DNA of 44,704 nt from Anaerolineae bacterium (GTDB lineage: Bacteria > Chloroflexota > Anaerolineae > S140-20), in assembly GCA_034435435.1 (NCBI GenBank), contig DAOTXN010000147.1, positions 1 to 44,704 of the forward strand. The letters run 5' to 3'. The position numbers and the translations under genes were made by a program. The notes beneath the pieces are model-generated. The model was not told the origin of the DNA, did no database searches, and was given only the letters and a program-made list of their open reading frames with translations. The first letter of the stretch is position 1. Every line of letters starts with the position of its first letter. Below are positions 20,730 to 39,511 of this stretch, piece after piece.

Positions 20730-20936
20730 ATGGCCACTGCCATCATCAATGGGCGTCGCGTCCAGATCCCGCCCGTCGCCAAGGTGGAAGACATCCGCAA
20801 GGCCGGCGGGATCGACGAGGGCCGCACCATCATCCAGCGTCGTCGCGAAGGCAACTATGTGGTGCGCCCCGGCGAGGAGGTGCCCGTCCAAGACGGCGAC
20901 GTCTTTGTGGACGCGCCCCCACGCATCAAGGGCTAA
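20730..20936 (+). CDS. Small ubiquitin-like (beta-grasp) protein ending in a C-terminal Gly (...PPRIKG-stop), 68 aa
   Basis: Small beta-grasp-like protein directly upstream of the E2-like and E1-like genes. C-terminal glycine exposed. RBS CAGGAGGTGAACCATG. Confidence 0.5.
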   Translation: MATAIINGRRVQIPPVAKVEDIRKAGGIDEGRTIIQRRREGNYVVRPGEEVPVQDGDVFVDAPPRIKG

Positions 20937-21026
20937 CGCCCCCCAAGTCTTCCCAAAGGCTCCCGCCTTTCTCCCCGCCGCCGCTGTAGGCCTTTGGGAA
21001 GGCCCCCTCAAAAAAGGAGGCCGCCA

Positions 21027-21518
21027 ATGGCTCTCGACTGGCTCAAATCGAAAATGGAACAGAACCGGGAACCAGATGCCAACCGCCGCAATCAGCGGAT
21101 TGACGCCGAAGTCATGATGATTGCGCCGCGCTTCAGCCGCCCGCCTTATCAAGGCTTGGTTTATGACGACCAGGGACGCGACTGGCTGGTCGTCCCCGAT
21201 TATCCGCTGCCCGACCGCTTTCGGGATCGCCAGGCCGACTTGCTCATCGTCTTTCCCGAGACCTATCCTGAAACGCCGCCCATCGGCTTTTACCTCAACC
21301 AGCAGTTTCCACTGCGCAACGGCGCGCACGATGCGCATGCCACCGGCAAAGCCTATCACGGCGCCCCGGACCTGACCGATCAGGGTTGGCACTGGTATTG
21401 CGTGCAGATGGACATGGCCACCGCCGGCGCGTGGCGTCCCCAGATCGACCATCGCCAGCCGGACAACTTGTGGACCTTTTTGAACATGGTTCGAGAGGCC
21501 CTGACCAACGACGATTAG
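21027..21518 (+). CDS. Prokaryotic E2 (UBC-like) ubiquitin-conjugating enzyme homolog
   Basis: Size and position between the Ubl and E1 genes. Candidate catalytic Cys in WHWYCVQMD. RBS AAGGAGGCCGCCAATG. Call rests mainly on operon context and overall resemblance to bacterial E2-like families. Confidence 0.45.
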   Translation: MALDWLKSKMEQNREPDANRRNQRIDAEVMMIAPRFSRPPYQGLVYDDQGRDWLVVPDYPLPDRFRDRQADLLIVFPETYPETPPIGFYLNQQFPLRNGAHDAHATGKAYHGAPDLTDQGWHWYCVQMDMATAGAWRPQIDHRQPDNLWTFLNMVREALTNDD

Positions 21519-21547
21519 CCAACCAGCCATCCGAAAGGAGGAGCCTG

Positions 21548-23134: not shown

Positions 23135-23168
23135 CCCCCGGTTGTTCCAAGCGACCGGGGGTTCTTTA
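23135..23168. terminator. Bidirectional terminator-like hairpin CCCCCGGT-(11 nt)-ACCGGGGG followed by a T-rich stretch, between the convergent E1 gene and the membrane-CARF gene
   Basis: 8-bp GC-rich stem followed by TTCTTTATT, read from the sequence. Confidence 0.45.
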
Positions 23169-23810
23169 TTCGAATCGTGTGACAAAGACGCCGCGCTGGG
23201 TGTGGGGAAGAGGTTTGTTGTCAGCGTCGTAATCCGAGCGCACGTACTGGCAATCCACGCGGCGCTCGGTCGCCACGGAAAAGGCGCCGGCCGACATGAT
23301 GGCCGTGCCGCCGGTAATGTCTATGGCCGTCCTGGACAGTTCTACCCGATGTTGGGCCAACCAATCCAGCAAAAAAGCCGTCTTGGCCCGCACCTCGACC
23401 ACGCTCCAGGGATCCACGCTCTCTTTTTGGATGCAATCCGCCTCCAGCCCAGACGCCTCGGCAACCACGGCGGCGAGCTCTTCGGTTTGGCGGCTGCAGA
23501 TCAGCCCCAACCAGGCCGGTTTTTGCCGCTGCAAGGCCAGCAGGAGTGTATCTTTTTGGCCCCCGACGGTGAAAATCAGGCCGTCGCGCGGTATTTGAAA
23601 GGCTTCGCCGGCCCCGTAGCGCGGTCGGCGGCGGCGCAGCAGCGCGACCAGCCAGAATATCACGACCAGCAAAACCAGCCCGCCCAACGTGGTGACGGCC
23701 AACAGCAACAAACTGCCGGTGAAAGCGGCGCTGACTACGCTCTGCAGCCAGATGCCGGCGATCAACAGCTCGACCCAGCGGCTCTGAAAAAAGCGTTTGA
23801 TCTCGTGCAT
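23166..23810 (-). CDS. Membrane-anchored CARF-domain protein (Cam1-like/Csx23-like candidate cyclic-oligoadenylate sensor), 214 aa
   Basis: N-terminal hydrophobic segment (ELLIAGIWLQSVVSAAFTGSLLLLAVTTLGGLVLLVVIFWLVALL) followed by basic RRRRPRY. C-terminal soluble domain has a DITGGTAIMSAGAF motif that parallels the NYTGGSKSMAAQSY motif of the CARF protein at 34105..35289. Co-oriented with the type III cas operon. Confidence 0.5.
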   Translation of the reverse strand: MHEIKRFFQSRWVELLIAGIWLQSVVSAAFTGSLLLLAVTTLGGLVLLVVIFWLVALLRRRRPRYGAGEAFQIPRDGLIFTVGGQKDTLLLALQRQKPAWLGLICSRQTEELAAVVAEASGLEADCIQKESVDPWSVVEVRAKTAFLLDWLAQHRVELSRTAIDITGGTAIMSAGAFSVATERRVDCQYVRSDYDADNKPLPHTQRGVFVTRFE

Positions 23811-23819
23811 GGGCGCCTC

Positions 23820-24206
23820 CTACACCTGGCGGGCGACCCGCGCCGCCTCGCGCAGAGCTTGTAGATTGACGATTTCCGCGATCTCGAACTGGGGCGGGGT
23901 GCTCCCGGCCACGGGCCGCATCCACACCACCGCCGGAAAGTAGCCCATCCGCCCGTGCAGTTCGGGCAGCAGGGCGACCGCCGCCGGGGCATAAGCCGGG
24001 GGGTTGATCAGCAGCGGGAGGGTCTGCCACTCCTGGGGCGTCAGGTCGGCGCGGTCGGCGATCTCGGCGATCTGTTCAGCCAGCGGGAGGTCGTGGGTGA
24101 TGTGCACTTGCACGTCGATGACGCGCGCGACGGGCTGGCCGGTCAAGGCTTCGACCTGAGCCAGGTGGTCGGGGGTTAGCGGGTGGGCAAAGTTGAGGAG
24201 GATCAT
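23820..24206 (-). CDS. Hypothetical small protein (128 aa) co-operonic with the membrane-CARF gene
   Basis: ORF with a 4-bp overlap (ATGA) to the upstream RQC-like gene. No assignable motif. Confidence 0.4.
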   Translation of the reverse strand: MILLNFAHPLTPDHLAQVEALTGQPVARVIDVQVHITHDLPLAEQIAEIADRADLTPQEWQTLPLLINPPAYAPAAVALLPELHGRMGYFPAVVWMRPVAGSTPPQFEIAEIVNLQALREAARVARQV

Positions 24207-24844
24207 TTGCGTTGAGCGGGCCGGTCAGGATGTGGGAGCGGCTGTTCGCCTAACGTGTGCAAGGTGTGGTTGATCGCCGTGCGTAGCTTGCGCACCTCGC
24301 GAGCGAACCAGGTTCGCAGCATGGGGGCCAGGTCGCGTCGCTGGCGCTGCTCGATAGCCTGGAGCAGCAAAAGCTTGATGTCGCGGTGAATCGTCTCCAG
24401 CCGGGGCCACACCCGGTCTGGCTGGCCGGCCCCTTCGACGGAGCTCAAGGCGGGCGCCTGCCACTCTTCGAACCAGCCCAACAGCCGCTCCACCCACAGC
24501 GCCTTGACCCGTTCCCAACCCTGTGGCGAGTGGTAGAGCAGGGGGACGTCGCGGTCGTATTCGATGCGCAGCCAGTGATGATAGATGCACCAATCCACCT
24601 TGCGGGCGATTTGCTCGGCGGTGAGGTGTTGCAGCGCGCCATAGTCGGGCAGTTGGTCCCACTCCCACTCTAGCGCTTTTTTGCTGCGCGAGCCGTTGAG
24701 GATCAGTGTCAACCCGCTGCGGCCGGCTGCGCCGACAATGGCGTCGGCAGCCATCAAGATGGCGTTTATTTCGTCCTGGGCCGGCGGTTCGGCCGGCAGG
24801 ACGAGGGTGACGGGGATGGGAGAACGTTTACGACGGCGGGGCAT
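24203..24844 (-). CDS. RQC-like winged-helix domain protein (RecQ C-terminal-like), 213 aa
   Basis: LILNGSRSKKALEWEWDQLPDYGALQHLTAEQIARKVDWCIYHHWLRIEY resembles the RecQ RQC winged-helix signature (..L.GS....I......L..YG.......W...I..LI..G.L). The call rests on that motif pattern only. Confidence 0.35.
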   Translation of the reverse strand: MPRRRKRSPIPVTLVLPAEPPAQDEINAILMAADAIVGAAGRSGLTLILNGSRSKKALEWEWDQLPDYGALQHLTAEQIARKVDWCIYHHWLRIEYDRDVPLLYHSPQGWERVKALWVERLLGWFEEWQAPALSSVEGAGQPDRVWPRLETIHRDIKLLLLQAIEQRQRRDLAPMLRTWFAREVRKLRTAINHTLHTLGEQPLPHPDRPAQRK

Positions 24845-25280
24845 CGTTGTTCTTGGCCTCGGTAAATTCTTCCAAGAGCCGCTGGCTCATTTCCAACACC
24901 AGCGTCGCCTCTTTCAGGGCCTCGTCCGCGTCAAGCTGGGAAAAAATAACCTGGGGCGGCAGCGCCAACTCTTCGTCGCCGTAGATACTTACTTCCCTGT
25001 CCTTGCGCAAGCTCCTGGAAACGTGAATCAGGCGGTCCAACTGGGCTTGAAACCACGGGGGAAACAATTCCCGGTTTTCCCGCATAAAGAAACCCACGTC
25101 GTGCACTCTGGGGACTTCGAGACCCACGAGCCTCAAAACGGCCTTGAGGGCCATCTCGACACACTCTTGACAGCGCCGGACGGCCAGGTGCCACACGCCA
25201 TCGCTTTGAGCCATCCTGGCTTGCTTGAGGGAGTATGCAGCGGTCACGAGATAGCCCTGCGCCATTTCTTCGTTGGTCAT
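24828..25280 (-). CDS. HEPN-domain protein (toxin-like partner of a minimal nucleotidyltransferase)
   Basis: 150 aa, helical. R-x4-6-H candidate in EVPRVHDVGFFMREN. 4-bp overlap with the upstream MNT gene. Confidence 0.55.
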   Translation of the reverse strand: MTNEEMAQGYLVTAAYSLKQARMAQSDGVWHLAVRRCQECVEMALKAVLRLVGLEVPRVHDVGFFMRENRELFPPWFQAQLDRLIHVSRSLRKDREVSIYGDEELALPPQVIFSQLDADEALKEATLVLEMSQRLLEEFTEAKNNDAPPS

Positions 25281-25804
25281 AGCTCGATCACCTCACCCCA
25301 GCGGTAATCGGGTTTCAGCCTCCAATACCGCACACGGCCCTGACGTACCCTTTGGGCGCCTATCTCGCACAATCTTTGCGCCAGTTGATCCAGGATGGTT
25401 TGAAAAAAACCACTCTGGTCATACAAGATGATAGCGTCTTGAGTCAAGTCCAGGTAAAGAGGCGTAAAGCTTTGCGCCTCCTCGGGCGTCTTGATTTTGG
25501 TTGAAAAGTCGGTGTGAATTCCCTGACGGTGCAGGGAGATCAAATGGGGCCAAAGTTCATCTTCAATCTCTACCAGAAGGCGATTGCGGGCGCGGCGTGA
25601 CGCGGGCAGTTCCCTGGCGACGATGAACAAGTCTACGTCGGAGGTGAACGTGTGCTCGCTCCGCGCTACCGAGCCGTACAACACGACGGAGACCAGGCGC
25701 TCGCCGAAATGGCGTTTCAGCGCCTCGGTGTAGGCCTGGGCCGCTTCTAACGCTGACCAGGCGCCCCTGTTTGGGTCCTGTGGCACAGACATGGCATTCC
25801 TCAA
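25277..25804 (-). CDS. Minimal nucleotidyltransferase (MNT/Pol-beta superfamily) partner of the HEPN protein
   Basis: GS-x9-13-DxD motif: VVLYGSVARSEHTFTSDVDLFIVAREL. Confidence 0.65.
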   Translation of the reverse strand: MRNAMSVPQDPNRGAWSALEAAQAYTEALKRHFGERLVSVVLYGSVARSEHTFTSDVDLFIVARELPASRRARNRLLVEIEDELWPHLISLHRQGIHTDFSTKIKTPEEAQSFTPLYLDLTQDAIILYDQSGFFQTILDQLAQRLCEIGAQRVRQGRVRYWRLKPDYRWGEVIEL

Positions 25805-25900: not shown

Positions 25901-26020
25901 CCCGCTGCGCTGGGCTGGTCGACGATGGCGGCGGTGGCCATCAGGATGGCGTCTATTTCGGCCTGGGCCGGCGGCCCGGCCGGCAGGGCGAGGGTGGCGG
26001 GGATGCGGCGGCGGCGGAGT
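25901..26020. repeat. Degenerate (~85% identical) copy of the 5' end of the RQC-like gene (24713..24841), lying between the Cas7-CSD gene stop and the MNT gene
   Basis: Direct alignment: CCCGCTGCG..GGC..ATGGCG..GGC.GCCATCA.GATGGCGT.TATTTCG.CCTGGGCCGGCGG..CGGCCGGCAGG.CGAGGGTG.CGGGGATG is shared by both copies in the same orientation. Confidence 0.7.
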
Positions 26021-26025: not shown

Positions 26026-28269
26026 TCAGTTTTTGATGCCCCGCACATTTTCGGCTTGCGGGCGACCTTGGTAGCTGCCAACTGTGTAACTCACTCTCTG
26101 CCCTACCTGCAACGATTTTCGCCCTGAGCCGACAATACCGCTGTGGTGAACACGGATTTCGCTGCCATCTTCCTGGGTAATAGAACCGATACCCCGATCA
26201 TCTAACCATTTCTTGACCACTCCGATCTTGGTTGCTGAAGAGGTCGTCTGTTTTATTTGTTCTCTTACCGGCGTGGGCGATTTGACCGGTTGCCCAGCGA
26301 CTGCAGCCAGGGGGTCGGGTAGCACAGGCCGATGCCTGAACCTTTCAAGCTCCATGTACTCTGTTTGCTGGGGCCCAGGCCACTCGAGTATCTTTAACAG
26401 CATTTGAATCCGTGGTACACCCGCCAAAGATGATGCGTTATTGCGCTCGTTCTGGTCCATGTGCGCCAGGACATATCGATCGAATGCCTGGATAAAGCAT
26501 TGGGTATCATCTGGCGTTTCTGCCCTGTGCCACACGGGAAGGATTTGGGCCTTCTCATTTTTACTGAACAGGCAGCTATAGCGACCCATTTCCTCTTTAC
26601 GAGCACTCAAATACAGTGTGGGTTGGAGATGGGCAGAACCCATGCCCAGCGGCTTGCCCATGCCCAGTTTGTGGCGATACTGCTTGTCCGCCTCACCTGG
26701 CAACGTCAAGGCCCAGAGCAAAGCCCCTAGCTCGAAATCGCGCAGGTTCTCAAAATGGATATGAAACTTGAAAGCCACTTTCGACCTGACCGGCTTGATG
26801 CGAGTGTATTGTTTGGGGTGGTCTGTCAATGCCTCCTGATCGAACTCTTGAATATCGTTTAAATTGACATTGCCCCGATGCCAGTAGAGTTTGTGGCCAC
26901 GAATGGTTGTTTTGTGAGGCGGGGGACTGGCATAGTGATCTAGTTGACTTTTATCATCTGGTTCTTGTTGAGTCAGGTAGTGCTGAAAACTAGTTGGCTT
27001 GGGCGAGCCAAGGATCTTTGGCGTGATTGGGTGTTGAGCCGTCCATTCAGCTTGCGCCGCAGGTTCTGACCGTGCATCAGTAATTATGACTCGGCCAGCG
27101 CAGGCGCGATCTTTTACAGGAATGGCATCACTCTTGGTGTAGCCAAAGATAGCCTCGGCCAAATCCCGCTCCGACTCTTTCCGGAGGTCAGGAGGGAGCA
27201 AATCAAGTGGGCTGTTCGGGTAGGGAAGCCGAAACATCTTGGTCGGACCGAAAAAGACCAGTTCACCGGCAACATCGAGCAGATAGAAAAGCGGATCACC
27301 GTCACTCAGTAGTTTTCGTGTGCCTGTACCCAGCCCGCGCGTGAGATCGCGATCTTCCTGGTAGATTTGCCACATCTCGTCAGAAATGGGCACCCATTTG
27401 GCCGAAGGATCTGGCTCAAAGATGACACAGTGCCAATGTTTTTCGTGTCTTCCACCCATATGACCAGATTCGATCAGCGTACCAGGTACCATGCCAGGGG
27501 GTGCACTATGACTTCCGTGGCGAGCCGTTACCCTAGTAGTGATAGCGATATCAAGAATCAAGTCTCCCGGGCCTCGTTGACCACGGTTTTGAGATCCTCG
27601 AGAAGCGGGCTCTACAAACACATCGTAGACCCTTTGTGTCCCTCGTGACTCTCCCGTAATAGATCGGACGTTGTTGTACTCCACGTGTACGAACGATTCA
27701 CCGTTGTGCTCACTTACCGGTTGAATGGCCCACCCATTTGGGGTTTTCTTGAGATAGCCACCCTTGAGACGTGGAGAAGGATAGTCTAGATGCGTGGTCG
27801 GTGGCGCAGCCTTGTTTTTGCCCAGCATTTGCTCTCGATACCAGATTCCTAATGATGAAGGATCGCCTACTGCACGGTAGATGAGCTGTTCGCTGGTGAC
27901 CCACTGTACTTTGCCGTAGCCCACGATTTCCACCAACGATCTGATCATGCCACGCAGAGTGCTGCCCGGAATTACTGGACATTGGCCATCCACAGAGAAG
28001 AACTGAGCTCTTTCGTCTTTTACTTCTTCCGGCAGCTCGTGGAACGGCTTGTCGCCCCAGGCCCTGAAAATCTCTGGACTCATACCTGCCCGGGTGTATA
28101 GAGGCGATTCCGTGGTGAGCAGACATTCGATGTAGCCCGTATACCCGGCATAGACGTCTTGAGGTGGAATGTCATCAACCGTAACCACTTTTTCCGGCAA
28201 TGGAATAAAGTTATAGGGCGCGTGGGCTGTGCGATTTGACTGCTTGGGACTCTTGTGTTTCGGATTCAT
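26026..28269 (-). CDS. cas7: Large Cas7-family RAMP (Cas7 with a large insertion) with a C-terminal cold-shock domain, 747 aa
   Basis: N-terminal HAPYNFIPLPEKV and G-rich loop VIPGSTLRGMIRSLVEIVGYG are typical of type III RAMPs. C-terminal 65 aa (KIGVVKKWLDDRGIGSITQEDGSEIRVHHSGIVGSGRKSLQVGQRVSYTVGSYQGRPQAENVRGI) matches the CspA-type cold-shock domain pattern. RBS GGAGGGGTGAAATG. Confidence 0.6.
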   Translation of the reverse strand: MNPKHKSPKQSNRTAHAPYNFIPLPEKVVTVDDIPPQDVYAGYTGYIECLLTTESPLYTRAGMSPEIFRAWGDKPFHELPEEVKDERAQFFSVDGQCPVIPGSTLRGMIRSLVEIVGYGKVQWVTSEQLIYRAVGDPSSLGIWYREQMLGKNKAAPPTTHLDYPSPRLKGGYLKKTPNGWAIQPVSEHNGESFVHVEYNNVRSITGESRGTQRVYDVFVEPASRGSQNRGQRGPGDLILDIAITTRVTARHGSHSAPPGMVPGTLIESGHMGGRHEKHWHCVIFEPDPSAKWVPISDEMWQIYQEDRDLTRGLGTGTRKLLSDGDPLFYLLDVAGELVFFGPTKMFRLPYPNSPLDLLPPDLRKESERDLAEAIFGYTKSDAIPVKDRACAGRVIITDARSEPAAQAEWTAQHPITPKILGSPKPTSFQHYLTQQEPDDKSQLDHYASPPPHKTTIRGHKLYWHRGNVNLNDIQEFDQEALTDHPKQYTRIKPVRSKVAFKFHIHFENLRDFELGALLWALTLPGEADKQYRHKLGMGKPLGMGSAHLQPTLYLSARKEEMGRYSCLFSKNEKAQILPVWHRAETPDDTQCFIQAFDRYVLAHMDQNERNNASSLAGVPRIQMLLKILEWPGPQQTEYMELERFRHRPVLPDPLAAVAGQPVKSPTPVREQIKQTTSSATKIGVVKKWLDDRGIGSITQEDGSEIRVHHSGIVGSGRKSLQVGQRVSYTVGSYQGRPQAENVRGIKN

Positions 28270-28270: not shown

Positions 28271-28843
28271 TCACCCCTCCAATCCTACCAAACGGCTCAG
28301 GGCGATATATGCCTGGCCTTCCTCATCATAATCCACGTAATGGCGCACTTTGAGCGCCGGTCGTCGTTTCCCTTGCGGAATCACCGGCGGCGCGTGGCGC
28401 TGGCCCTGTTTCCCTTCCTGGAGCAGGGCGAAGCCGGTCTGTTGGTCTACTTTCACCGGGTTGCCCAGATGCCAGAGCAGGTGTCTCTCGTCTGGCAGCG
28501 CCTTCAATGTGAGGTGGGTATCTTTTATCAGACGAGCGACAAACCCCTTCTTCGTGCGCCAGACCAGCAGTTCTCCCGCCGGGCCAAAGATGCGCGCTTG
28601 CTGCAAGGTCACCGCCCGTAACGGCACGGCGACCGAGGGAAATTCTTTGGAATCGCTGAATACGTCGCTAGAAAGCGCCAAAGTCCCATCGGCCTGCCGC
28701 TTACCCCAGATGACGCCATCGTCGGCGTGGACGAGCAGCCAGGGCATCCCTTCATCCACTCGCTGCGTCAGCCAGGCGCGCGGGTCGCTAACCAATTCTG
28801 TCAGTTTTTCTTTGTCTATCGATATGCCATAGTGCTTGCTCAT
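28271..28843 (-). CDS. Small beta-rich protein inside the RAMP gene array (possibly Csx19-like accessory subunit), 190 aa
   Basis: Translationally coupled on both sides (TGAaATG downstream, 4-bp overlap upstream). Sequence is beta-strand-rich (GVIWGKRQADGTLAL, ELLVWRTKKGFVARL), unlike helical Cas11. Confidence 0.35.
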   Translation of the reverse strand: MSKHYGISIDKEKLTELVSDPRAWLTQRVDEGMPWLLVHADDGVIWGKRQADGTLALSSDVFSDSKEFPSVAVPLRAVTLQQARIFGPAGELLVWRTKKGFVARLIKDTHLTLKALPDERHLLWHLGNPVKVDQQTGFALLQEGKQGQRHAPPVIPQGKRRPALKVRHYVDYDEEGQAYIALSRLVGLEG

Positions 28844-30282
28844 GCGTTCTGACCCTCCTTGTGAGCGTGGAATGCCGCCACGAAATCTTCCAGGGCTTGC
28901 GACGCACCATCGCCACCAAAGTGTAAGGTCTTATTCTCGCCCTGTGTCAATTCCCAGGTTGTGGTCTGCCCCGGCGTGCGCTGTGTCAACTTTGCCGAGC
29001 GGCCTGCCAGCCGCCCCCGCCCCACGCTGCTCTCACCACCCAGGGGCAGGTCGCCGGTCCACAGGTCTTTGAGCACCAGCAGCAACAGACCGATTTCCGC
29101 CGCTTGGGGCTGACGCAATTCCAGGTGGACACGCACTTGCGATCCCGGGCCGCCGAAGAGCGGCTGCTCGGAAAAGAGCGCCTGGGGATAGGCCCCGCCA
29201 GTAAAGCGGTCGATCTTGACCCGGCTCTGCACCAGGTCGAGATTACCTTTGACCTCGCTCTCATAAGTGACAATGCGGCTGCCCGCCGGTTTGTCCTCGC
29301 TCCCTTTGATGAGCGGGCCGAACATGCCGTTGACTAGGTCCTTGGCCTTGTCTTCCGGCAACAACGTATTGGCAATCCGCTGCGCCCGCGCCCGCACTGC
29401 ACCTGCCAGGCTGGTGCCGGACAGGATGGGAACCGGCTTCCTATTGCGCGGCGATTGCAGATGTACCATATCGGGGTCGTCAGGATCGCCGGAACTGGAG
29501 CGGATGAGCAGGGAGCTTTCCAGCGCAAAGGTTGCATCAAGGGTGAAGCGGACGCGATTATCGGGCAATGCTTGCGCGTCGTCCCCCAACAGGTCGCAGA
29601 TCTTTTCGCCACGCATCTCACCGGTGGCGTCGTTGTTCAACCAGGCCAAAAGCCCTTGCTTCGTCGTGACCGGGTAGCGCCGCACGCGCCACTCGGCGAC
29701 CTTGCACTGCCCCAATCCGCGACGTTTGCGCATTCCCAGGCCGATTTCGCCGCACTCGAGGCCGTGCAGGGCCAGGGCCAGGCTTTGCAGCAAGTCGGCG
29801 CCCCGGTTGTCCTCCGAAAGCAGCAACTCCAAAGAGAGTTCGAACGTCGTCCCGGCTTGAAGCAACTCGATGTCGTACTTTTTCTTATCCGCAGCAGTGC
29901 GAGTTTTGGCCTCGAGGGCCACGCCGTCGCGGATTTCGACGCCCGGCGTCTCGCCCAGGGCATCGTCCACCAGCAGCCAACTCTGCACACTTTCGTTGCC
30001 GCGCACCGTGCCGAAGAGTTGTCGCGCCCGATCATTGGGGCGCTCGGCGCCGCCGTAGCCGTGTTCTGCCTCACGCACGTAGGCGCGCAGCGCGCCCGCA
30101 ATGGACGTGCCAGTGAGCAACGGTTTGCCCGTCACACTATCCAACAGCAAGGGCATATCGGTGAGCGCCTCGGCATCCCCGTTGCCAAGATGCGCCGGAG
30201 TTTCCAATACCAACGTACCCTGGATAAGCACCCGCTCAATGATCTTACGCCCGGCGCGTCCTTCTACTTCATAGCCATTCAT
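28840..30282 (-). CDS. cas7: Double Cas7 fusion (Cas7-2x) RAMP, 480 aa
   Basis: Two G-rich-loop signatures in one polypeptide: PLLTGTSIAGALRAYVRE and VPILSGTSLAGAVRARAQRI. Confidence 0.6.
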   Translation of the reverse strand: MNGYEVEGRAGRKIIERVLIQGTLVLETPAHLGNGDAEALTDMPLLLDSVTGKPLLTGTSIAGALRAYVREAEHGYGGAERPNDRARQLFGTVRGNESVQSWLLVDDALGETPGVEIRDGVALEAKTRTAADKKKYDIELLQAGTTFELSLELLLSEDNRGADLLQSLALALHGLECGEIGLGMRKRRGLGQCKVAEWRVRRYPVTTKQGLLAWLNNDATGEMRGEKICDLLGDDAQALPDNRVRFTLDATFALESSLLIRSSSGDPDDPDMVHLQSPRNRKPVPILSGTSLAGAVRARAQRIANTLLPEDKAKDLVNGMFGPLIKGSEDKPAGSRIVTYESEVKGNLDLVQSRVKIDRFTGGAYPQALFSEQPLFGGPGSQVRVHLELRQPQAAEIGLLLLVLKDLWTGDLPLGGESSVGRGRLAGRSAKLTQRTPGQTTTWELTQGENKTLHFGGDGASQALEDFVAAFHAHKEGQNA

Positions 30283-31889
30283 GCGCCCACCTCCTGGTCA
30301 GGTTTCTGGTTCTGGCGGATCGCCTTTTTCATCACACCATCAATGAGCCGCGCTGTGTATTTCACCCGCAATTCGGGCGTGAACGCCGCCCGCTGACCTG
30401 CGACGGGGGATAAAGACTGTCCTTTTAAGAGTTGTTGCTGGATGTCTTGCTCCTGCAGCCGGGCCTCGAGCCAGGTCAGCAGGGGAAGGCCCGCCACGCG
30501 CGCCTCCTCGAATTGCCCCTTCGCGCCCTTGAGGGCGGCCAGGTGCACGCGAATGGGAGTCAGATCCCCTTCCCGCAGCGCTTGGCGCGCTGCGTTGCGC
30601 ACCCGCGAAAGCTGCGCGTTCTGTGGCTGGCGCGAGATTTGGATGCCGCTGATGGCAGCCGTCAGGCCCCGTTCCAACAGGTTTACCAAGTGGTTTTGGG
30701 CCATCCGCTGTGCCAATGCCAGACCTTCCTCAGAAAGGTTTGCCTTGGACGTTAATGCTTGACGCGCCCATGGTCCCCAGGCTACAGTATTCGCCGTGTG
30801 CCAGTTGACCGCGATGCGCCCAAACCCCTCGGCTCGTCGCTCGCCGATACCGGCTGCGACGAGATCGCGTAGTTGTTCAGCATCTACCTGCGCCGCGTCA
30901 TAGACAAAGACGCTGCCCGCTTGCAAGACCCAGGTTTGCTCCAGCGGTAACCCCCACTTGCGGTTAAAGCCGCCCACCAATCCCACGCGCTGATACTTGC
31001 GCCGGGCCTGCAGGTCTGGCAAGTCTAACAAGTCAGCCAGCATCCCATCCATATCGGCGCTGAACTGCCCGTCTGACCCGCGCAGGATGGCATCGCTCAG
31101 CAACGTGACGATGACCACGTCACCCGGCGCAGCAGCGGGTGCGTATTCCGTCCAGTTTTCAACCAGGGCCAGTGTTTCTATTTGTACGTGACCATAGCCG
31201 GCCGTGTGCGCGCCGCCCAAGAAGAGATCGGGATTCCCTGCTAGCAAGGTGTGCAGCAGCTCCAGGTCAAAGTCATCCGGCGCGATGATGGCGCCGCCCA
31301 GCACTTCCCCCGCCGCCAACGCATCGTAGCGATAGACCTTGTTTTCCTCGGTGCGGGTGTTCGCTTTGACCAGCGCGATGTGGACGTTTACCTCACGCGC
31401 AGGAGTGTAGAACTTTGTTTGTGGCGGCTCAGGTTCTTTGCCGACAGCAAGCGCTTCCAGTGCTTCCTCGGCGGATAGTTGGGGCGCTTCGGGCATGGTC
31501 AAAACGCAAAAATCGGCATTCTTGGGCGGTTTGGGTTGCTGCAATTGAATGGACGCATCCACTGCCCAGTCGTAGAATGTCCCGCTATCATCTCCCGCCA
31601 AATCCTTCTCCGTGAACCACGAAAGAGGGCGAGGCAAAAGCCGTTTCCCTTCGGGAGCAGGATAGGCATTGAGGAAAGCCACTGTGCCATCCAGAAACAA
31701 CGCACGAGTCTCGGCGTTTTTCGCCAAGTCGCCCGGTTCCTCATCTCGCAAATAGCGCGCGACCACCGCACCGCGCAGGGCGCTGCCCGGCACAAAGGGC
31801 AGGCCGATGGCGCTGTTCTCCTCGCCGGTTTCGGCTTGGGAGACCAGCACCGGTTCCAGCAAACGTAATTGATAGGTCAGGGCTTTCAT
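30279..31889 (-). CDS. Large RAMP-superfamily protein (536 aa). Cas7-like N-terminus, possibly a Cas5-group/Csx10-like or fused subunit.
   Basis: GLPFVPGSALRGAVVARYLR G-rich loop near the N-terminus. 4-bp overlaps with both neighbours. Confidence 0.5.
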   Translation of the reverse strand: MKALTYQLRLLEPVLVSQAETGEENSAIGLPFVPGSALRGAVVARYLRDEEPGDLAKNAETRALFLDGTVAFLNAYPAPEGKRLLPRPLSWFTEKDLAGDDSGTFYDWAVDASIQLQQPKPPKNADFCVLTMPEAPQLSAEEALEALAVGKEPEPPQTKFYTPAREVNVHIALVKANTRTEENKVYRYDALAAGEVLGGAIIAPDDFDLELLHTLLAGNPDLFLGGAHTAGYGHVQIETLALVENWTEYAPAAAPGDVVIVTLLSDAILRGSDGQFSADMDGMLADLLDLPDLQARRKYQRVGLVGGFNRKWGLPLEQTWVLQAGSVFVYDAAQVDAEQLRDLVAAGIGERRAEGFGRIAVNWHTANTVAWGPWARQALTSKANLSEEGLALAQRMAQNHLVNLLERGLTAAISGIQISRQPQNAQLSRVRNAARQALREGDLTPIRVHLAALKGAKGQFEEARVAGLPLLTWLEARLQEQDIQQQLLKGQSLSPVAGQRAAFTPELRVKYTARLIDGVMKKAIRQNQKPDQEVGA

Positions 31890-32554
31890 CCTTGCACCGC
31901 CTTTCGGAAGCTCGCAAAATGAGTTTCGGTCAGCGGTTCACCGCCCGGGGCAAAGAGCTCCGCCTGCACCCGCCCGCGCCCACGATTGCGCCCGGTGCCG
32001 ACACGTCGCAGCGCTTTGACCGTGGCTGCGAGCAGGGCCAGATCGTCAGAGTTCGGCTCTTCGCTGAAGATGAGTTGCGCACTGAACACGATATCGCGGA
32101 GGATGACCCGCATCGTGCGCAGCGTCTCTTTGCGCGGCGCGCCGCTCTCGTCCATCGCGGTCTGGCGGCGTAGCGTGGTCAACATGTCGAGCACATCGCT
32201 GCGCGTCAGAGTCTTTTTCTCGATGTCACGGGACAAGGCCGCCTGTAAGTCGCGCGGCAGGCGGGCCGGACCAACACGCATGATGGCTTCTCCTTCCAAC
32301 CGCGCCCCGCTCTGACCAAAGAGGCGGGTTGCAGCCCGTTGCCAGCGCGTTTTTTGATCTGGGAGGGCTTTACTCAGGGCATGGACCAGATCGTCGCACT
32401 CTGCGCCCAAGACGCCCTTGAGCGCGCGCCCACCGAGATAGGGTAGGCCGACGGCGTCGTGTTGTACCTCCACATCCACCAGACCGGCCACGCCATCGCC
32501 GCGCCCAAAGGTAGCATCACTCAAGAGGGTCAGTTTGAGTTGATAGACTTTCAT
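31886..32554 (-). CDS. cas7: Cas7 (Csm3/Cmr4-like) RAMP, 222 aa
   Basis: MKVYQLKLTLLSDATFGRGDG...GLPYLGGRALKGVLGAECDDL matches the Csm3-type N-terminal strand plus G-rich loop. Confidence 0.55.
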   Translation of the reverse strand: MKVYQLKLTLLSDATFGRGDGVAGLVDVEVQHDAVGLPYLGGRALKGVLGAECDDLVHALSKALPDQKTRWQRAATRLFGQSGARLEGEAIMRVGPARLPRDLQAALSRDIEKKTLTRSDVLDMLTTLRRQTAMDESGAPRKETLRTMRVILRDIVFSAQLIFSEEPNSDDLALLAATVKALRRVGTGRNRGRGRVQAELFAPGGEPLTETHFASFRKAVQG

Positions 32555-34066
32555 CGTGTTATTTCCTCCTCCAATGGGACAAAAAAGTCCAGCGCCTCCA
32601 CTGCGTCAAAGTAGCCGCAGCGCCCTCCTTGCCAGCCCTGCCCCGCCATCATGGGCAGGCTGCTGATTTCCGGTAGACGTTTCAGATCGGGATACGCGGC
32701 GAGGAAATGCTGCACCGCCTCACGCCCGCCACGCAACGCCTCCCGCAGTGCTTTGACCTTGTTGCGCCGTCCGGCCCAGGAGCCATCTCCATCCTGGAAG
32801 GCCGCCATGATCCGTGTAAAAGTTTCCCATGAGCGCCAATCGCCATTGGGTGGATTTAGCCGCACCGGGCGCATGAGCAGGCTATCGTCATGCACGGTGT
32901 ATTCGCGCTCTCGCACCTCTTTCAACGGCAGCACCAGCCCACTCACGGCAAAGTGCCAATCCAGGGCAGTCAAGCGATCTTTGCCGATATAGCCTTTGGC
33001 CGAGGCTGCCAACGCTTCGGCCAGTTCGTAGGCGCGGGAGAAGGGATAGTGCGATTTGACCACAGCCACACCCGCGCGGGCGTGCGCCTGTTCCTTGTCG
33101 GAAAGGATCTGCTCCGAGAAGACCCGCAGATAGTGCGCGGCGACTGCTAGACCCAGCCGCCCTTCGCAGACGAAGGTGACGTCATCCCCGCCAAAGACGA
33201 TGGGGCGGAAGGGCAAATGATCCACTCCCTTCTTATGCGGGCAAGGCACACGACCTCGTATGCGTTTGCTCACTTGGCCCTTCTCATCCTCAACCTCTTT
33301 GACCGCATCAAACAGTAAATCTACGGTGCTGGCAAGGGCTTTATCCGCTGCTGCTTTTACCGAGTTGGAGAAATTTTTCAACGCCTCACAGTAGTCCTCG
33401 TCGCTCCTTCCCACCAATCCCTGGATACGCTCGCCCATACGGTTGCCGTCGGTGTGGATGATGGCCAAGTAACTGGATTCACCCTTGGTCCCAAAATCAC
33501 CGAAATCATAGACAAATTCATAGCCCTGCTCGGTGAGCCTGGATAACTTTCGGCGAAGCTGGGCTTTGCCGTCTTCAGTTGCGCGTAGTTTGGCTTGCAC
33601 CTCGGCGGAAATCAGTTGCCCATCGTCGTTGGTGCCGACTGCCGGCGCGCCGGTGTAGACGCAGGCAGCGGTGACGCCCAGGCCCAGGAGCGGCGTGGAT
33701 GGGCGGCGGTTCAGTTTGCGTTGGGCCAGTTTGCCACGCAACGCCTGGTGCGTATCGCGCAACTGCCCCGACGCGAAAGTCTGCCGCGCTACGACCAGTT
33801 GCAGGCCGGGCGCGTCTTTGAGCGCCTGGTAGGTCAGCTCGCGAGCAAAGGTGTCCGCCTGTACCTCGGTATCAAAGAGCAACATGGCGTTGCCGCCGCC
33901 GGTGTAGACACGCTGTTCCGGCGTGGTCCGCGCCGCGACCCAATCCTCTGTGGCCTGGCGCACCAACTCCGAAGCGCCGATGTTCTGAGCCAGTTGGTTG
34001 CTGCCAAAGATGTAGTTCTGGATGCCGGAAGCTTCCACCAATAACAATGTTTTCTCTGTCATCATC
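32551..34066 (-). CDS. cas10: Cas10-like large subunit lacking an HD domain but retaining the cyclase GGDD motif (type III-D-like), about 505 aa
   Basis: Palm-domain motifs LLLVEASGIQNYIFGSNQLAQNIGASELV and PIVFGGDDVTFVCEG. No HD motif at the N-terminus. The ATGATG start at 34066/34063 is preceded by AAGGAGGG, and the longer ORF start at 34104 is unlikely. Confidence 0.55.
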
Positions 34067-34104
34067 CCTCCTTGAATGAATGAACGAGAAAGCGAGTGAG
34101 CCAA

Positions 34105-35289
34105 TCAGCGAATCTGACCGGCAATGGCGATCCACTCGCGGAAGTGCTGCGCCAGATCCGGCAAATGTTCCCGCCCAAAGACGCGGATTTTACCCTGAGC
34201 GTCCCAAGACTCACTGACCTCATCTTGTAATGCTTGTGCCTGTTCCACACAACATACCACGGCAAAGCGCGCTTCGTCACCGCCCAATTGCCGGGCACGG
34301 ACAAAGGTCTCCATGAGATGATCCTTGGCGGACTGCGTGCGATCCGTCGCCATGCATGAAAGAGCAAACAACTGATAGCCCAACAATGCCGCCACGTCTA
34401 ATTCAAAACCACGATGACCAGGGCGCTTGAATTCCAATCCCATGCCCACTTGATGCAATCCCAACTGCGCGCTCAACGCCTGCAAATTCTCAAACACGTA
34501 TTCTTCCAGCCAGTCGGCAATGAACAACTTGGTGCAATTGGCGAGGTGGCCGTTTTTGCAGTTTAGTTCGTCGGCTACCCGCTGGGGCGTTGGCGCCACG
34601 CCACATAGCGCCGTAAAGGCAGCGATCACCGGCGCTAAAGCCGGGTATTCGGCCGCGGTAGGCAGCTGCGGATTAGCCTGGCTGAGAGTTTGCAGCCAGG
34701 TGCGCCATTGGTTAAAGCCCGCTTTCGTGCAATGTACCTCCACCAGCGACTGGCGCAAAATCGACGGCATGGCTGGCGGACGCTGTACATTCACTTCGTA
34801 GCCATGCAAGGCGAAAAGGGCCTCAAAATCCACTTGCACGCGCTGGCCTACAAAGATGTGCTGGGTGGGCACACCCGGCGCTTCGATGACGAAGGAGAGC
34901 GTGTCGGCATCCAGGTAGCTGAACACACCACGGGGATAGGCCGCGCGCAAGATGTGATAAGATTGCGCGGCCATCGATTTGCTGCCGCCGGTGTAGTTCA
35001 GGCCGATGCTGGCGTTAGGGCCGATCTCCCGCTTTAAGCTCTGTAGGCGCTGGGCGATCAACTGTGGATCGGACTTGGAGATTTCCCAGAGGGTTAGAGT
35101 CAGATCGCCGCGCTTTTTACGGATCTGTTCACTGAGCTGCTTGGCGATGTCAAAGGTTGTATTGGTATGCAGAAGATAGGCCACGCCGCGCTCTGCGGCC
35201 AGCAACAACGCTGCCACATAATTCGGCAGCGGGTTGGCGCCGACCAGGAGAAACAGCACATCCGTTTGGTAGGGGGAGAAATCGGCCAT
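34105..35289 (-). CDS. CARF-domain effector protein (Csx1/Csm6-like, possible C-terminal HEPN), about 394 aa
   Basis: CARF N-terminal strand-loop DVLFLLVGANPLPNYVAALLLAA and the LNYTGGSKSMAAQSY motif. C-terminal R-x5-H candidate (KIRVFGREH). ATG at 35289 (MADFSPYQ). Confidence 0.5.
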   Translation of the reverse strand: MADFSPYQTDVLFLLVGANPLPNYVAALLLAAERGVAYLLHTNTTFDIAKQLSEQIRKKRGDLTLTLWEISKSDPQLIAQRLQSLKREIGPNASIGLNYTGGSKSMAAQSYHILRAAYPRGVFSYLDADTLSFVIEAPGVPTQHIFVGQRVQVDFEALFALHGYEVNVQRPPAMPSILRQSLVEVHCTKAGFNQWRTWLQTLSQANPQLPTAAEYPALAPVIAAFTALCGVAPTPQRVADELNCKNGHLANCTKLFIADWLEEYVFENLQALSAQLGLHQVGMGLEFKRPGHRGFELDVAALLGYQLFALSCMATDRTQSAKDHLMETFVRARQLGGDEARFAVVCCVEQAQALQDEVSESWDAQGKIRVFGREHLPDLAQHFREWIAIAGQIR

Positions 35290-35322
35290 TGTTGTCCTTT
35301 TCAAAAACACCTGTTTGTCTGA

Positions 35323-36315
35323 CTAGTCCATTCCCTTATCGAGAACATACCTCCCCCCTCCCCACACCACCCCCTTCCCCACGCCCACCCACTGCCCCAG
35401 CCACAGGGCCGGCAACAGCGGGCGCAGATCTGCTTCCGAGGCATACCAGGCCTGACCCACGAATCCTTCCAGCGGCATTGTTCCGCCGCGCTGGCTGTGG
35501 CGGGTCTGGCTCATCCAGGTGGTCTCGTGGTGCTCCAGGCGCACCCCGTCGGCCAGGTCCAGCAGCGGGCCGTACTCGGCCTGGGGCCATTCGCCCGCGC
35601 CGTGCACCTCGCTCAGGATGCGCAGCCGGCGCACGACCGCCCGCGCCAGGGGCGCGAACTCGGGGCGGCGGGCCAGCTCGCCCTGCGCTTTGACCTTGAC
35701 CGGGCTGAGAAAGTGCAGGCGCAAGCGCGTGATTTCAGGTGCGCCGCACCTGACCCAGGTCTGGCCGTCGGCGTAGCTCACCGCCATTCCCTCTACCGGG
35801 TCGCCCTGCCACACACCATCCACGAGCAATGGGACAGTCTGGCCGTCCGGCCCGGTCAGTGCTTCCACCCGGCGTATCACAGCTTTCAAGCGCTCGCGGC
35901 CCATTCCGCGCTCGCCCCCCACCATCAGCGCCGCCACAAAGGCCGGCAGTTGCTGGATGGCCGCCGAACCGATGAGGGCCAATTCAAAACGAAACCAGTC
36001 GCCAACGTCCACCTCACGCCGGCGGTCCTGATTGTCCCACAACGCGTAGCCCGGCGGCGGGGTGGGACCCATCAAGCGTTGCAGCGCTTGCGACCAGGAG
36101 GGGTCGGGCTGGGGTTCCAGCAAGAATCCGAACAGACACTGGCGGGGTCGTTGGCAGCCGTTCCGGCAACGTTCGGGCTGCCGGCACCAGAGGGTCCCCA
36201 GATACCACAGCAAGGCCCGGCGCAGCAGGTCGCCCTTGTAGGGTGGCAGGCGGGCGGGAGCGGCCACCTCTAGCTCGAAGCGCAGGCGCATCAGGCGCAG
36301 TTCCGATAACATATC
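35323..36315 (-). CDS. cas6: Cas6-like CRISPR RNA endoribonuclease (330 aa)
   Basis: C-terminal glycine-rich loop GVGKGVVWGGGRY (G.G.....G.G pattern). N-terminus MLSELRLMRLRFELEVAAPARLPPYKGDLLRRALLWYLG is Cas6-like. Position at the head of the type III operon. Confidence 0.5.
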   Translation of the reverse strand, partial: DMLSELRLMRLRFELEVAAPARLPPYKGDLLRRALLWYLGTLWCRQPERCRNGCQRPRQCLFGFLLEPQPDPSWSQALQRLMGPTPPPGYALWDNQDRRREVDVGDWFRFELALIGSAAIQQLPAFVAALMVGGERGMGRERLKAVIRRVEALTGPDGQTVPLLVDGVWQGDPVEGMAVSYADGQTWVRCGAPEITRLRLHFLSPVKVKAQGELARRPEFAPLARAVVRRLRILSEVHGAGEWPQAEYGPLLDLADGVRLEHHETTWMSQTRHSQRGGTMPLEGFVGQAWYASEADLRPLLPALWLGQWVGVGKGVVWGGGRYVLDKGMD

Positions 36316-36655
36316 AGACCCCTTCCCTGCGCTGCGATGCCACCGGCAAAAAGTCTGACGGATGGTTGAGCAGCAAGACCACGCGCGCGGGCTGGAACAC
36401 GCTGATGGTTTGAAGCAAGGGTTCAATGGAATGGCCCACCGGAAAGGCCAGAGTATCGCAAGCGGGGAATTCCAACGCGCCGCGCTGTTCGGCGTAGCAC
36501 AGCTCGGCCGGCAGCAGGTGTTCTACGTACCAGGCCATGCGCTCGGCCAGGGCGCCGCCGCATTGCCAGTATTGTTGTGTGCGCTCGCGCAGCGCGGCGA
36601 TGCTCAAGTCGCCGCAGGCCGCGTGAGAGGCCCACCATCGGAATGAGGAGTGCAT
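36314..36655 (-). CDS. Hypothetical 113-aa protein, first gene of the minus-strand cas operon
   Basis: ORF with RBS AGGAGA. 2-bp overlap with the cas6 start. No assignable motif. Confidence 0.3.
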   Translation of the reverse strand: MHSSFRWWASHAACGDLSIAALRERTQQYWQCGGALAERMAWYVEHLLPAELCYAEQRGALEFPACDTLAFPVGHSIEPLLQTISVFQPARVVLLLNHPSDFLPVASQRREGV

Positions 36656-37050: not shown

Positions 37051-37058
37051 GAGTAGAA

Positions 37059-38320: not shown

Positions 38321-38380
38321 CCAGGCAGCGATTTGTGGTATAATCTATGCATCGATGTGAACGCGTATGTGAGGAGGGAT

Positions 38381-38912: not shown

Positions 38913-38974
38913 CCCATTGAAAAAATACGCATCTTTGCGTGGCGCCCGTCCCTGGCTGGGACGGGCGCTTGTGT

Positions 38975-39479: not shown

Positions 39480-39511
39480 GACCACAGATTTGAATTTTCA
39501 GGAGAAAGCGC

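Follow-up and report, generated by a model that had tools for sequence, protein, structure and literature searches.

A cold-shock domain fused to the C-terminus of a type III-D Cas7-insertion protein in an Anaerolineae bacterium, with other tails at the same site in its relatives

A 747-residue RAMP protein of an Anaerolineae bacterium raises the question of whether a nucleic-acid-binding domain has been built into a subunit of a type III CRISPR–Cas complex and, if so, what such a domain would do there. The gene (26026..28269, minus strand, stop codon at 26026–26028) lies in a 44,704-nucleotide stretch of contig DAOTXN010000147.1 (assembly GCA_034435435.1; herein referred to as the window), and an earlier note, made from the sequence alone, had proposed that its last ~65 residues are a CspA-type cold-shock domain (CSD). 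The open reading frame is uninterrupted, and its product is identical to a 747-aa protein in NCBI (P0001).

Most of this protein is a Cas7-insertion core (residues 1–655; 26305..28269, minus strand). In an NCBIfam profile search, TIGR03986 spans residues 18–630 with all 568 profile positions (E = 1.2e-117) and scores 394.8 bits against an equivalog cut-off of 161, as befits a full-length family member; since the model ends there, the CSD falls outside it. The core closes with the motif RPVLPDPL (residues 647–654), of which R647, P648, V649, L650, P651, D652 and P653 are invariant across CSD-bearing homologues. In the full-length AlphaFold2 model (mean pLDDT 90, pTM 0.82), a Cas7 RRM core carries a large insertion domain, an arrangement structurally similar to III-Dv chain E, the insertion (INS) region (residues ~126–325; 27295..27894, minus strand) forming a beta-rich block. 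The earlier note took this part for an ordinary Cas7-like backbone. Indeed, the PYNFIPL start (APYNFIPLP, residues 17–25) and the GSTLRGMIRS loop (PGSTLRGMIRS, residues 101–111) that it named are both present; however, the protein is not a repeating backbone Cas7: Foldseek ranks first chain E of 8S9T, the Cas7-insertion subunit present once in the III-Dv complex of Synechocystis (E = 3e-26; TMq 0.57, TMt 0.62), and Cas7.4 of Cas7-11 comes next.

Behind the core follows a flexible linker of ~25 residues (residues 656–680, AVAGQPVKSPTPVREQIKQTTSSAT; 26230..26304, minus strand), which is disordered and lacks secondary structure in the model (pLDDT ~50, at residues 661–680), and then the CSD itself (residues 681–744; 26038..26229, minus strand). 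Pfam PF00313 matches residues 683–744 (nucleotides 26038–26223) at E = 8.4e-13 and 48.4 bits (gathering score 27), and the isolated tail at E = 2.6e-14 (53.3 bits); phmmer against PDB sequences matches CspA at 2e-8. DSSP assigns five strands (residues 681–689, 694–699, 704–708, 725–733 and 736–744) at pLDDT ~95, which form a five-stranded antiparallel beta-barrel (OB fold) of ~65 residues. The tail of the full-length model superposes on CspC, CspE and CspA with TM-scores of 0.88–0.91 (rmsd 1.3–1.4 Å) and the tail-only model on CspA with 0.85; for CspA, CspE and Bc-Csp the TM-scores span 0.85–0.91 and the rmsd 1.3–1.7 Å. Compared with CspA, CspB and CspE, the window CSD has the same fold and length at 36–43% identity (rmsd 1.3–1.8 Å), but those are free proteins and it is fused and tethered. 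The identification in the earlier note is hence confirmed: a genuine CspA-type cold-shock OB fold is fused, in one open reading frame, to the C-terminus of a TIGR03986 Cas7-insertion RAMP. The alternative that the tail is a common low-complexity extension of these proteins holds by half, in that extensions are common, yet this one consists of a low-complexity linker and a folded domain. As the sequence comes from a metagenome-type contig, a free csp gene might have been joined to cas7-insertion through an assembly or frameshift error; however, the same fusion, in each case behind csx19, is seen in no fewer than 24 distinct proteins whose assemblies are independent and span different phyla, the junction motif [AV][VL]AGQPV is common to the window protein and its CSD- and S1-tailed homologues, and GC3 is uniform (0.54 in core and in tail), and we reject this explanation as having next to no probability.

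A complete type III-D operon, all of it on the minus strand, ends with the fusion gene. Read from its far end, the operon comprises cas6 (35323..36426; CRISPR_Cas6, E = 3.3e-14), a Card1-like CARF nuclease effector (34105..35310; Card1_endonuc, E = 3.7e-7) whose position matches that in the related loci L001 and L005, a short cas10 of about 505–517 aa (32551..34104; Cas10-Cmr2_palm2, E = 1.2e-10; GGDD at residue 305), a single Cas7 of 222 aa (31886..32554; RAMPs, E = 4e-8), csx10 of the Cas5 family (536 aa; 30279..31889), a double, Cas7-2x-like Cas7 of 480 aa (28840..30282; RAMPs, E = 3e-32 in two stretches, with partial Csx7/Csm3/Cmr4 matches) and csx19 (28271..28843; TIGR03984, E = 1.1e-32), directly after which cas7-insertion ends the effector operon. 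The cas10 product lacks an HD domain, as no HD motif was found in its N-terminal 120 residues. The csx10 assignment is provisional, because its TIGR02674 score (E = 4e-38, 131.5 bits) lies below the cut-off of 177.3, although Cas_Cmr3 (25.1, cut-off 21) and RAMPs (27.3, cut-off 22.1) lie above theirs. A csx15 gene (23820..24206, minus strand; NF040560, E = 2e-48), which normally lies directly downstream of cas7-insertion, is also present; its product is 57–61% identical to that of the reading frame right after cas7-insertion in L001, L004 and L005, and a counterpart within that range lies one gene further downstream in L003, past a 255-aa reading frame. The set of cas10, csx10, Cas7 paralogues and csx19 is that of a type III-D effector, and the module resembles III-Dv but is not its fused variant: Cas7 and Csx10, fused in the Synechocystis III-Dv system, are separate reading frames here, with no fused cas7-cas5-cas11 gene. 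This neighborhood recurs: of 80 related genome loci, 78 have csx19 in the flanking 3 kb, and in the 11 CSD-tailed loci inspected it lies immediately upstream of cas7-insertion. No CRISPR repeat array was found across the 44.7-kb window; given the cas6 gene and the RT-cas1 module, the array is probably located past the end of the contig. The adjacent RT-Cas1 cassette encodes two more CSD proteins, a HORMA-like-CSD protein and a 131-aa CSD protein. We considered and rejected a recent duplication of another CSD of the window into cas7-insertion, the identity being roughly 30% by eye.

How common is such a tail? In the 120 protein clusters nearest to the window protein, the tail reaches 60 aa or more in 76. 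Pfam (E ≤ 0.1) finds a CSD in 14 and an S1 domain in 12; when the tail ends are grouped by BLAST, 14 fall into a CSD class, 15 into an S1 class, which here also takes in S1-like members, and 11 into S1-like-B. The 80 closest species-level genome loci, drawn from 483 relatives, contain 11 CSD, 13 S1 and 8 S1-like tails, such that the survey of homologues proposed in the earlier note does recover the same fusion. Short tails (~25–59 aa) are strongly K/R-rich, most of them carrying a net charge of +4 to +10 (full range +3 to +10), the linker ranges from 10 to about 100 aa, and roughly one close relative in three or four has either no tail or just a short one. No free csp or S1 gene, which would have pointed to fusion or fission, was found beside tail-less cas7-insertion within the 3-kb flanks of the 80 loci. 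Not every class is evidently RNA-binding: several are helical or unclassifiable, Pfam returned nothing significant for representatives of the classes other than CSD and S1, and hhalign linked only S1-like-B to S1, weakly (probability 66%); we hence claim no OB fold for these remaining classes. A search with just the last 158 aa drew on only 81 word-index candidates, too few for counting fusions, and returned one fragment (P0121), and a core-end plus CSD profile run against a representative set of 1.84 billion sequences gave at least 11 clear fusions (single-stretch, full-profile) among the best 150 matches, a lower bound because multi-CSD proteins dominate that search.

The operon order of the window is shared by L001 and L003 (CSD tail), L004 (S1 tail) and L005 (short basic tail). 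The S1- and K/R-tailed proteins P0003/L004 and P0013/L005 have cores 57–67% identical to the window's, the tail likewise following PVLPDPL; operon and junction are thus common and tail chemistry differs. Core and tail also have discordant histories. Identities to the window in core and tail are 68 and 54% for P0002, 64 and 31% for P0008, and about 40–45 and 75% for L022; the window core is 67% identical to that of L003, whereas its tail is 75% identical to that of L022. A sliding window places the identity crossover at residues ~626–675, INS identity is 54–74% to L003 and L004 and only 16–26% to L022, L009 and L053, and on the core tree the CSD-tailed proteins are interspersed with S1-tailed and tail-less ones. 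This discordance indicates that the tail behaves as an exchangeable module. Judged from sequence comparison, the C-terminus of these proteins carries a widespread module with interchangeable states (CSD, S1, K/R-rich peptide and others), of which the CSD fusion is one, and the presence of CSD, S1 and K/R tails at one junction would represent three chemically different RNA-binding solutions for one site.

Solved type III complexes indicate where this site would lie. The Synechocystis III-Dv Cas7-insertion protein (8S9T_E; TM ~0.6, 24% sequence identity) shares with the window protein the TIGR03986 family, the position after csx19, the insertion domain and a C-terminal LPxL motif; however, it stops ~12 residues past that motif without a C-terminal domain and bears instead a flexible, uncharacterised 112-residue N-terminal domain (PMC11026444), which we considered as a further OB fold and rejected for want of a Pfam match. 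Its plasmid, pSYSA, was not picked up by tblastn of the window protein against plasmids, and the locus was reached with a fragment of the PDB chain as query. In III-Dv, which holds a fixed 37-nt crRNA, Cas7-insertion exposes a 6-nt 3' seed of the crRNA, and its F767 (of 795 residues) stacks on crRNA U32 (PMC11026444). F767 lies within EAFKWFVANEKGRRLALPAL, resembling TEYMELERFRHRPVLPDPL of the window protein just ahead of the linker, although the correspondence of F767 to the Y638–F644 region is motif resemblance only, the last ~100 residues being unaligned by BLASTP. [quoted passage not shown] Both are multi-Cas7 fusions, unlike the separate subunit of the window, and an OB-fold appendage after the CTE is not described for either in the literature searched.

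We lean, if not by much, toward the hypothesis that the tail helps to capture targets, as a tethered RNA-binding arm beside the 3' seed of the crRNA; the role in recruiting or unwinding target transcripts suggested in the earlier note is thus plausible, and it is the reading we prefer and infer here. [quoted passage not shown] As a sequence-unspecific arm, it could transiently hold a single-stranded transcript, perhaps keeping the RNA unfolded as free Csps do; this would raise the local concentration of target RNA, speed seed pairing and make Cas10 (GGDD) signalling to the Card1-like effector more sensitive. Since many relatives are tail-less or short-tailed and the Synechocystis III-Dv complex works without a tail, such an arm would be an accessory.

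The same geometry might instead place the tail on the crRNA side, binding the pre-crRNA 3' flank or the crRNA 3' end during assembly and thereby setting or protecting the guide 3' end, or replacing a recruited host RNA-binding factor or exonuclease. The tail does begin right behind the crRNA-contacting C-terminal segment, in a subunit that holds the 3' end of a crRNA of fixed length. There is also a precedent in type III-A, whose cap subunit Csm5 recruits PNPase, which carries an S1 domain, and RNase J2 for crRNA maturation. [quoted passage not shown] However, crRNA maturation is presumably normal in relatives that share the operon but lack a tail, a long linker of variable length suits distant capture better than a fixed 3'-end ruler, and no nuclease linked to tail presence was found in the loci inspected (L001, L003, L004 and L005); we hence consider a crRNA-side role unlikely.

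Target capture by this particular copy requires that its CSD still binds RNA. The RNP-like motifs noted earlier are present in position, but their aromatics are mostly substituted: RNP1 reads RGIGSI (canonical KGFGFI) and RNP2 IRVHH (canonical VFVHF), so that the aromatic platform of CspA, CspB and CspE is largely replaced. Of the seven canonical aromatic/His contacts (W11, F18, F20, F31, H33, F34 and Y42), just two persist, H33 and a His at position 34, the other five being substituted (W11K, F18I, F20S, F31R and Y42R). The three core Phe/Tyr positions F18, F20 and F31 are kept in 21 of 24 Cas7-insertion CSD tails, and RNA binding is therefore less certain for the window copy than for the family. 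The L022 CSD carries the same substitutions, and the rates between the two (pN 0.16, pS 0.79, the latter saturated) place the pair under purifying selection. With Arg, His and Ile largely in place of the stacking platform, binding, if retained, would probably be more electrostatic than in CspA; CspA is an acidic protein, whereas the window CSD is net basic (about +4, counted by hand).

Substitutions shared under purifying selection imply a selected but different surface, and the window CSD could accordingly have been repurposed as a protein–protein or regulatory module that binds no nucleic acid, for example by docking Csx15 or the Card1-like effector or by auto-inhibiting the seed pocket; relatives with helical tails show that modules other than OB folds can be accommodated at the site. 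We nevertheless regard such repurposing as improbable, given that the net charge and the Arg gained at positions 31 and 42 are more like a nucleic-acid binder than a protein interface, that the closest relatives in the family retain canonical RNP motifs and that no partner co-varies with tail type across the five loci compared. If nucleic acid is bound, it might be the single-stranded DNA of the transcription bubble, holding the complex at transcribing invader DNA: cold-shock domains bind ssDNA as well as ssRNA (CspA/CspB), PDB entries with dT7 or RNA are among the cold-shock structures matching the tail model, and type III immunity is transcription-dependent. Yet a Cas10 without an HD nuclease domain offers no DNA-cleaving activity to position, and what relatives carry in place of the CSD, S1 domains and K/R-rich peptides, typically binds RNA, making this very unlikely.

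Returning to target capture, we tentatively extend it to the family, as a possibility we hold with some doubt: in type III-D effectors at large, the Cas7-insertion C-terminus may serve as a socket into which an arm for capturing target RNA is plugged. CSD, S1, K/R-rich and other tails would be cartridges, swapped by recombination between loci, and would set which transcripts get to the seed, or with what efficiency. The same CSD block in two RT-Cas1 cassette proteins of Anaerolineae-type loci would then be one RNA-handling domain serving both interference and RNA-derived spacer acquisition. The literature searched contains no description of a Cas7-insertion–CSD protein, in line with the earlier note, nor of S1-tailed or K/R-tailed TIGR03986 proteins.

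Should the tail prove dispensable, or the window copy non-binding, the fusion would merely be a domain-architecture variant of modest interest. Taken together, CSD, S1 and arginine-rich tails at one spot suggest an undescribed RNA-grabbing arm beside the seed end of the guide RNA, and their mosaic pattern points to sub-gene modules of Cas effector subunits being swapped between loci. How type III complexes rapidly find rare or structured invader transcripts is poorly understood; if our reading is true, nature would have solved the problem of target finding simply, with a covalently tethered RNA-binding domain that sits next to the seed and can be exchanged, and CSD or S1 arms on Cas7-11 or III-D tools would offer an engineering route to greater sensitivity.

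The gene at 26026-28269 (minus strand), the last of its operon, is a 747-aa ORF without interruption, and its translation contains both the APYNFIPLP start and the PGSTLRGMIRS loop from which the earlier note had recognized a Cas7-like backbone subunit. Residues 18-630 cover all 568 profile positions of TIGR03986 (394.8 bits against a cut-off of 161), the NCBIfam equivalog model "type III CRISPR-associated RAMP", and residues 683-744 (nt 26038-26223) match the Pfam cold-shock domain (CSD) PF00313 (E 8.4e-13, 48.4 bits); the CSD is thus no part of what defines the family, and its proposed place at the C-terminus of the RAMP is borne out above the gathering score of 27 both on the full protein and on the isolated tail (53.3 bits). 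Sequence matches in the PDB (phmmer) are to Cas7-11/gRAMP and chain E of the III-Dv structure (8S9T_E) and, separately, to CspA (2e-8). An AlphaFold2 model built from a 108-sequence alignment (mean pLDDT 90, pTM 0.82) extends the core to approximately residue 655, followed by a disordered linker (residues 661-680, pLDDT ~50) and five strands in residues 681-744 (pLDDT ~95). In Foldseek, the best match to the whole model is 8S9T_E, the III-Dv Cas7-insertion subunit (E 3e-26), with Cas7-11 next, and the tail superposes on CspC, CspE, CspA and Bc-Csp (TM 0.88-0.91, rmsd 1.3-1.4 Å; TM 0.85 to CspA from a tail-only model); the predicted C-terminus is hence a five-strand barrel of the OB fold, as had been anticipated. 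At least 24 independent fusions, together with the conservation of the junction, rule out an assembly artefact.

A full-text search of the literature outside subscription journals, in which absence is not proof, returned no description of a Cas7-insertion fusion to a CSD or S1 domain, in agreement with the earlier impression that the architecture is undescribed. Neither of the structure papers (III-Dv, PMC11026444; III-D2, PMC13294483) mentions the fusion, nor does the 2025 update of the classification, the 2018 survey of accessory genes or the NYN ribonuclease paper. The Pfam domain pair is already annotated by database pipelines, and two fragments carry the JGI name "cold shock protein".

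The CSD fusion recurs among relatives, in which the C-terminal module varies and a CSD is one of its states. With the core end set at the conserved RPVLPDPL motif (residues 647-654), 76 of the 120 closest protein clusters, the scope of this census, carry at least 60 residues beyond it, among which Pfam (E<=0.1) identifies a CSD in 14 and S1 in 12. When the terminal ~85 residues are clustered by BLAST, they fall into an S1 class (15 clusters, S1-like members included), a CSD class (14), an "S1-like B" class (11), two small beta classes (9 and 4) and two helical classes (8 and 7); S1-like-B alone has a weak link to S1 (hhalign probability 66%), and the small beta and helical classes have no Pfam match. 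Species-representative genomes contain 483 stretches encoding relatives, and the best 80 of these loci comprise 11 CSD, 13 S1, 8 S1-like-B, 4 small-beta and 3 helical tails, 20 unclassified tails and 21 tails shorter than 50 aa. CSD-tailed loci belong mainly to Anaerolineae/Anaerolineales MAGs (with the addition of one Latescibacterota genome, one Acidobacteria genome and one MAG binned as Iainarchaeum, whose contig looks Anaerolineae-like). Tails of ~25-59 aa are nearly all strongly basic (net charge from +3 to +10, in most cases +4 to +10; such as ...GGYKSGKRRGRR and ...KGKRKKRNRR), and three RNA-binding chemistries (CSD, S1 and basic peptides) therefore recur at one site.

The minus-strand type III-D effector operon that ends with the fusion gene is complete; it further comprises cas6 (35323-36426), a Card1-like CARF nuclease (34105-35310), a short cas10 (32551-34104; GGDD at residue 305, no HD), cas7 (31886-32554), csx10 (30279-31889; provisional because its 131.5 bits fall under the TIGR02674 cut-off of 177.3 in NCBIfam), a double cas7 (28840-30282) and csx19 (28271-28843). 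The arrangement is similar to that of the III-Dv operon in Synechocystis, apart from Cas7 and Cas5 being unfused here, and the same order repeats in independent contigs with a CSD tail (L001, L003), an S1 tail (L004) or a short basic peptide tail (L005). Csx15 (23820-24206, minus strand; NF040560, E 2e-48) directly follows cas7-insertion in related loci irrespective of tail type (one gene off in L003); in the window it is pushed away by MNT/HEPN and RQC-like genes. The MNT (25277-25804) and HEPN (24828-25280) genes are flanked by an 86-nt direct repeat (24733-24818 and 25920-26005, 87% identity), which looks like the footprint of that cassette's insertion; the copy just past the cas7-insertion stop codon encodes an N-terminal remnant of the RQC-minor-1 DNA-binding protein (24203-24844). 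In L003, an MNT/HEPN-like pair lies further downstream. A 214-aa ORF (23166-23810, minus strand) with weak CARF-family matches (TIGR02710, E 5e-8; CARF_Card1, E 0.008) and, by eye, a hydrophobic, possibly membrane-spanning N-terminal stretch may encode a membrane-anchored cOA sensor; a 237-aa ORF occupies its position in L003, matching over just 50 residues (28% identical).

The tail and the core differ in their histories. CSD tails occur in at least four places of a neighbour-joining core tree (rough, and built without support values), mixed among S1-tailed and tail-less proteins. Identity to the window protein is 68% in the core and 54% in the tail for the homologue P0002, 64% and 31% for the homologue P0008, and 45% and 75% for L022, the locus with the nearest CSD. 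The window's Csx10, Cas7-2x and Csx19 are nearest to L009 and L022 (62-79% identity); its Cas7-insertion core is nearest to L003/L004 (66-67%, versus 38-48% to L022/L009). In sliding-window comparison, identity crosses over at approximately residues 626-675, and the insertion domain (residues 126-325) is just 16-26% identical to the related loci L022, L009 and L053. GC3 is 0.54 in the cas7-insertion gene, core and tail alike, and 0.67-0.80 in all other genes of the operon (28271-36426). Together, the discordant identities, crossover and GC3 contrast indicate that recombination has exchanged the whole gene and also, separately, its tail; GC3 and the neighbours' relatives suggest that the gene at 26026-28269 was replaced by recombination.

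Beyond the operon, a ubiquitin-like conjugation operon (20730-23104, plus strand) encodes a 68-aa Ubl-like ORF (20730-20933), Prok-E2_E (21072-21512) and a JAB-ThiF/E1 fusion (21386-23104), all on the plus strand. The S1-tailed locus L004 is flanked by a 66-81% identical conjugation operon (11288-13839, minus strand); two type III-D loci have such a Bil-like system as a neighbour. A tyrosine integrase (18131-19027, minus strand), an HTH regulator (19341-19721, plus strand) and a stand-alone NYN ribonuclease (20019-20606, plus strand) mark the left boundary of the defence region, where GC climbs from ~0.55 to ~0.65. In a 768-aa hybrid sensor kinase (4802-7108, plus strand), two S1 RNA-binding domains at the N-terminus precede REC, GAF and HATPase, to our knowledge not a familiar architecture.

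Relative to the E. coli CspA sequence and numbering, the window's CSD carries W11K (with Trp moved to position 12), F18I, F20S, F31R, F34H and Y42R, leaving H33 as the sole unchanged position of seven. All seven aromatic/His positions are kept in 11 of 24 distinct Cas7-insertion CSD tails, and F18, F20 and F31 in 21, being lost only in the window (2/7 positions kept), L022 (3/7 kept) and the fragment P0114 (0/7 kept). L022 has the same substitutions (RGIGTI, IRVHH); between it and the window, pN is 0.16 and pS 0.79 (saturated), which marks the shared CSD as a subtype under selection and not one in decay. The lost aromatics would fit a CSD turned into a protein-interaction or regulatory domain; the arginines gained count against such repurposing, and net charge counted from sequence is ~+4. 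RNA binding is well motivated for the CSD tails as a family; with aromatic positions lost here and kept in most sister tails, it is less certain for the window copy, whose binding mode probably differs.

A tail-derived CSD profile run against all window ORFs identified two more CSD proteins, both within an RT-associated adaptation region (36999-44222, plus strand). One is a 131-aa ORF (38975-39370, minus strand; RGYGFI/IFFHV) scoring 25 bits in Pfam, just below the cut-off of 27; in the contigs L087, L088 and L089, the equivalent slot upstream of NYN is taken by an ORF of 131-137 aa, oriented alike. The other (41229-42002, plus strand; 219-257 aa, or 219 aa from the probable true start M38 at 41340) joins an N-terminal bacterial-HORMA-like match (29 bits, below cut-off) to a C-terminal CSD (37.9 bits, E 1.7e-9), and its 84 homologues (44-79% identity, most 62-79%) are mostly from Anaerolineae where the source names an organism. 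In the window and L087-L089 (6001-6660 in both L087 and L089), this HORMA-like-CSD gene lies between the NYN ribonuclease gene and an RNase H-like/RT/Cas1/Cas2 module. The cassette (399 aa, 140 aa, CSD on the minus strand, NYN, HORMA-like-CSD, RNase H-like, RT, Cas1, Cas2) is conserved in L087-L089 beside a type III operon, identified by Cas10 in L087 only, and we found no description of it in the literature. The window's plus-strand copy includes unknown ORFs of 332 and 123 aa, NYN (39961-41277), RNase H-like RVT_3 (41999-42499), an ORF at 42456-43346 taken as the RT because its slot, flanked by the RNase H-like and cas1 genes, holds an RVT_1 match in L087/L089, and Cas1 (43359-44222); a ParE-like toxin-antitoxin pair (38333-38912) and DUF433 (39512-39880) are extra insertions, and the contig stops ahead of cas2 and of any array. 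Three CSD modules in one III-D and RT-Cas1 locus are unlikely to be coincidence and fit an RNA-centred system.

In III-Dv, Cas7-insertion caps the crRNA 3' end of the complex and exposes a 6-nt seed that starts target pairing, with F767, in a subunit of 795 aa, stacking on U32 of the crRNA (PMC11026444). F767 lies within EAFKWFVANEKGRRLALPAL, ~12 residues before the C-terminus encoded on pSYSA; this segment is similar to TEYMELERFRHRPVLPDPL, directly ahead of the window's linker, and may be its equivalent, a tentative assignment because BLASTP left the F767 segment unaligned between the two proteins. In III-D2, the Cas7.4 C-terminal extension together with INS recognises the crRNA-3'-proximal guide-target duplex (PMC13294483). 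From these placements, we infer that the tail would be anchored beside the seed; it might instead act at the crRNA 3' end or during assembly. The Synechocystis subunit (L086, 2659-3030) differs in bearing 112 additional aa at its N-terminus, a domain that is not visible by cryo-EM and has no Pfam match, and flexible appendages thus occur at either subunit end, by lineage. Binding of ssDNA at the transcription bubble is disfavoured because Cas10 has no HD and because RNA is what the alternative tails bind. Most economically, the tail would be a non-specific RNA-capture or chaperone arm, tethered near the seed by a flexible leash of 10 to ~100 residues, that would raise local transcript concentration and hold the transcript single-stranded for seed pairing, with more sensitive Cas10 signalling to the Card1-like nuclease as the likely result.
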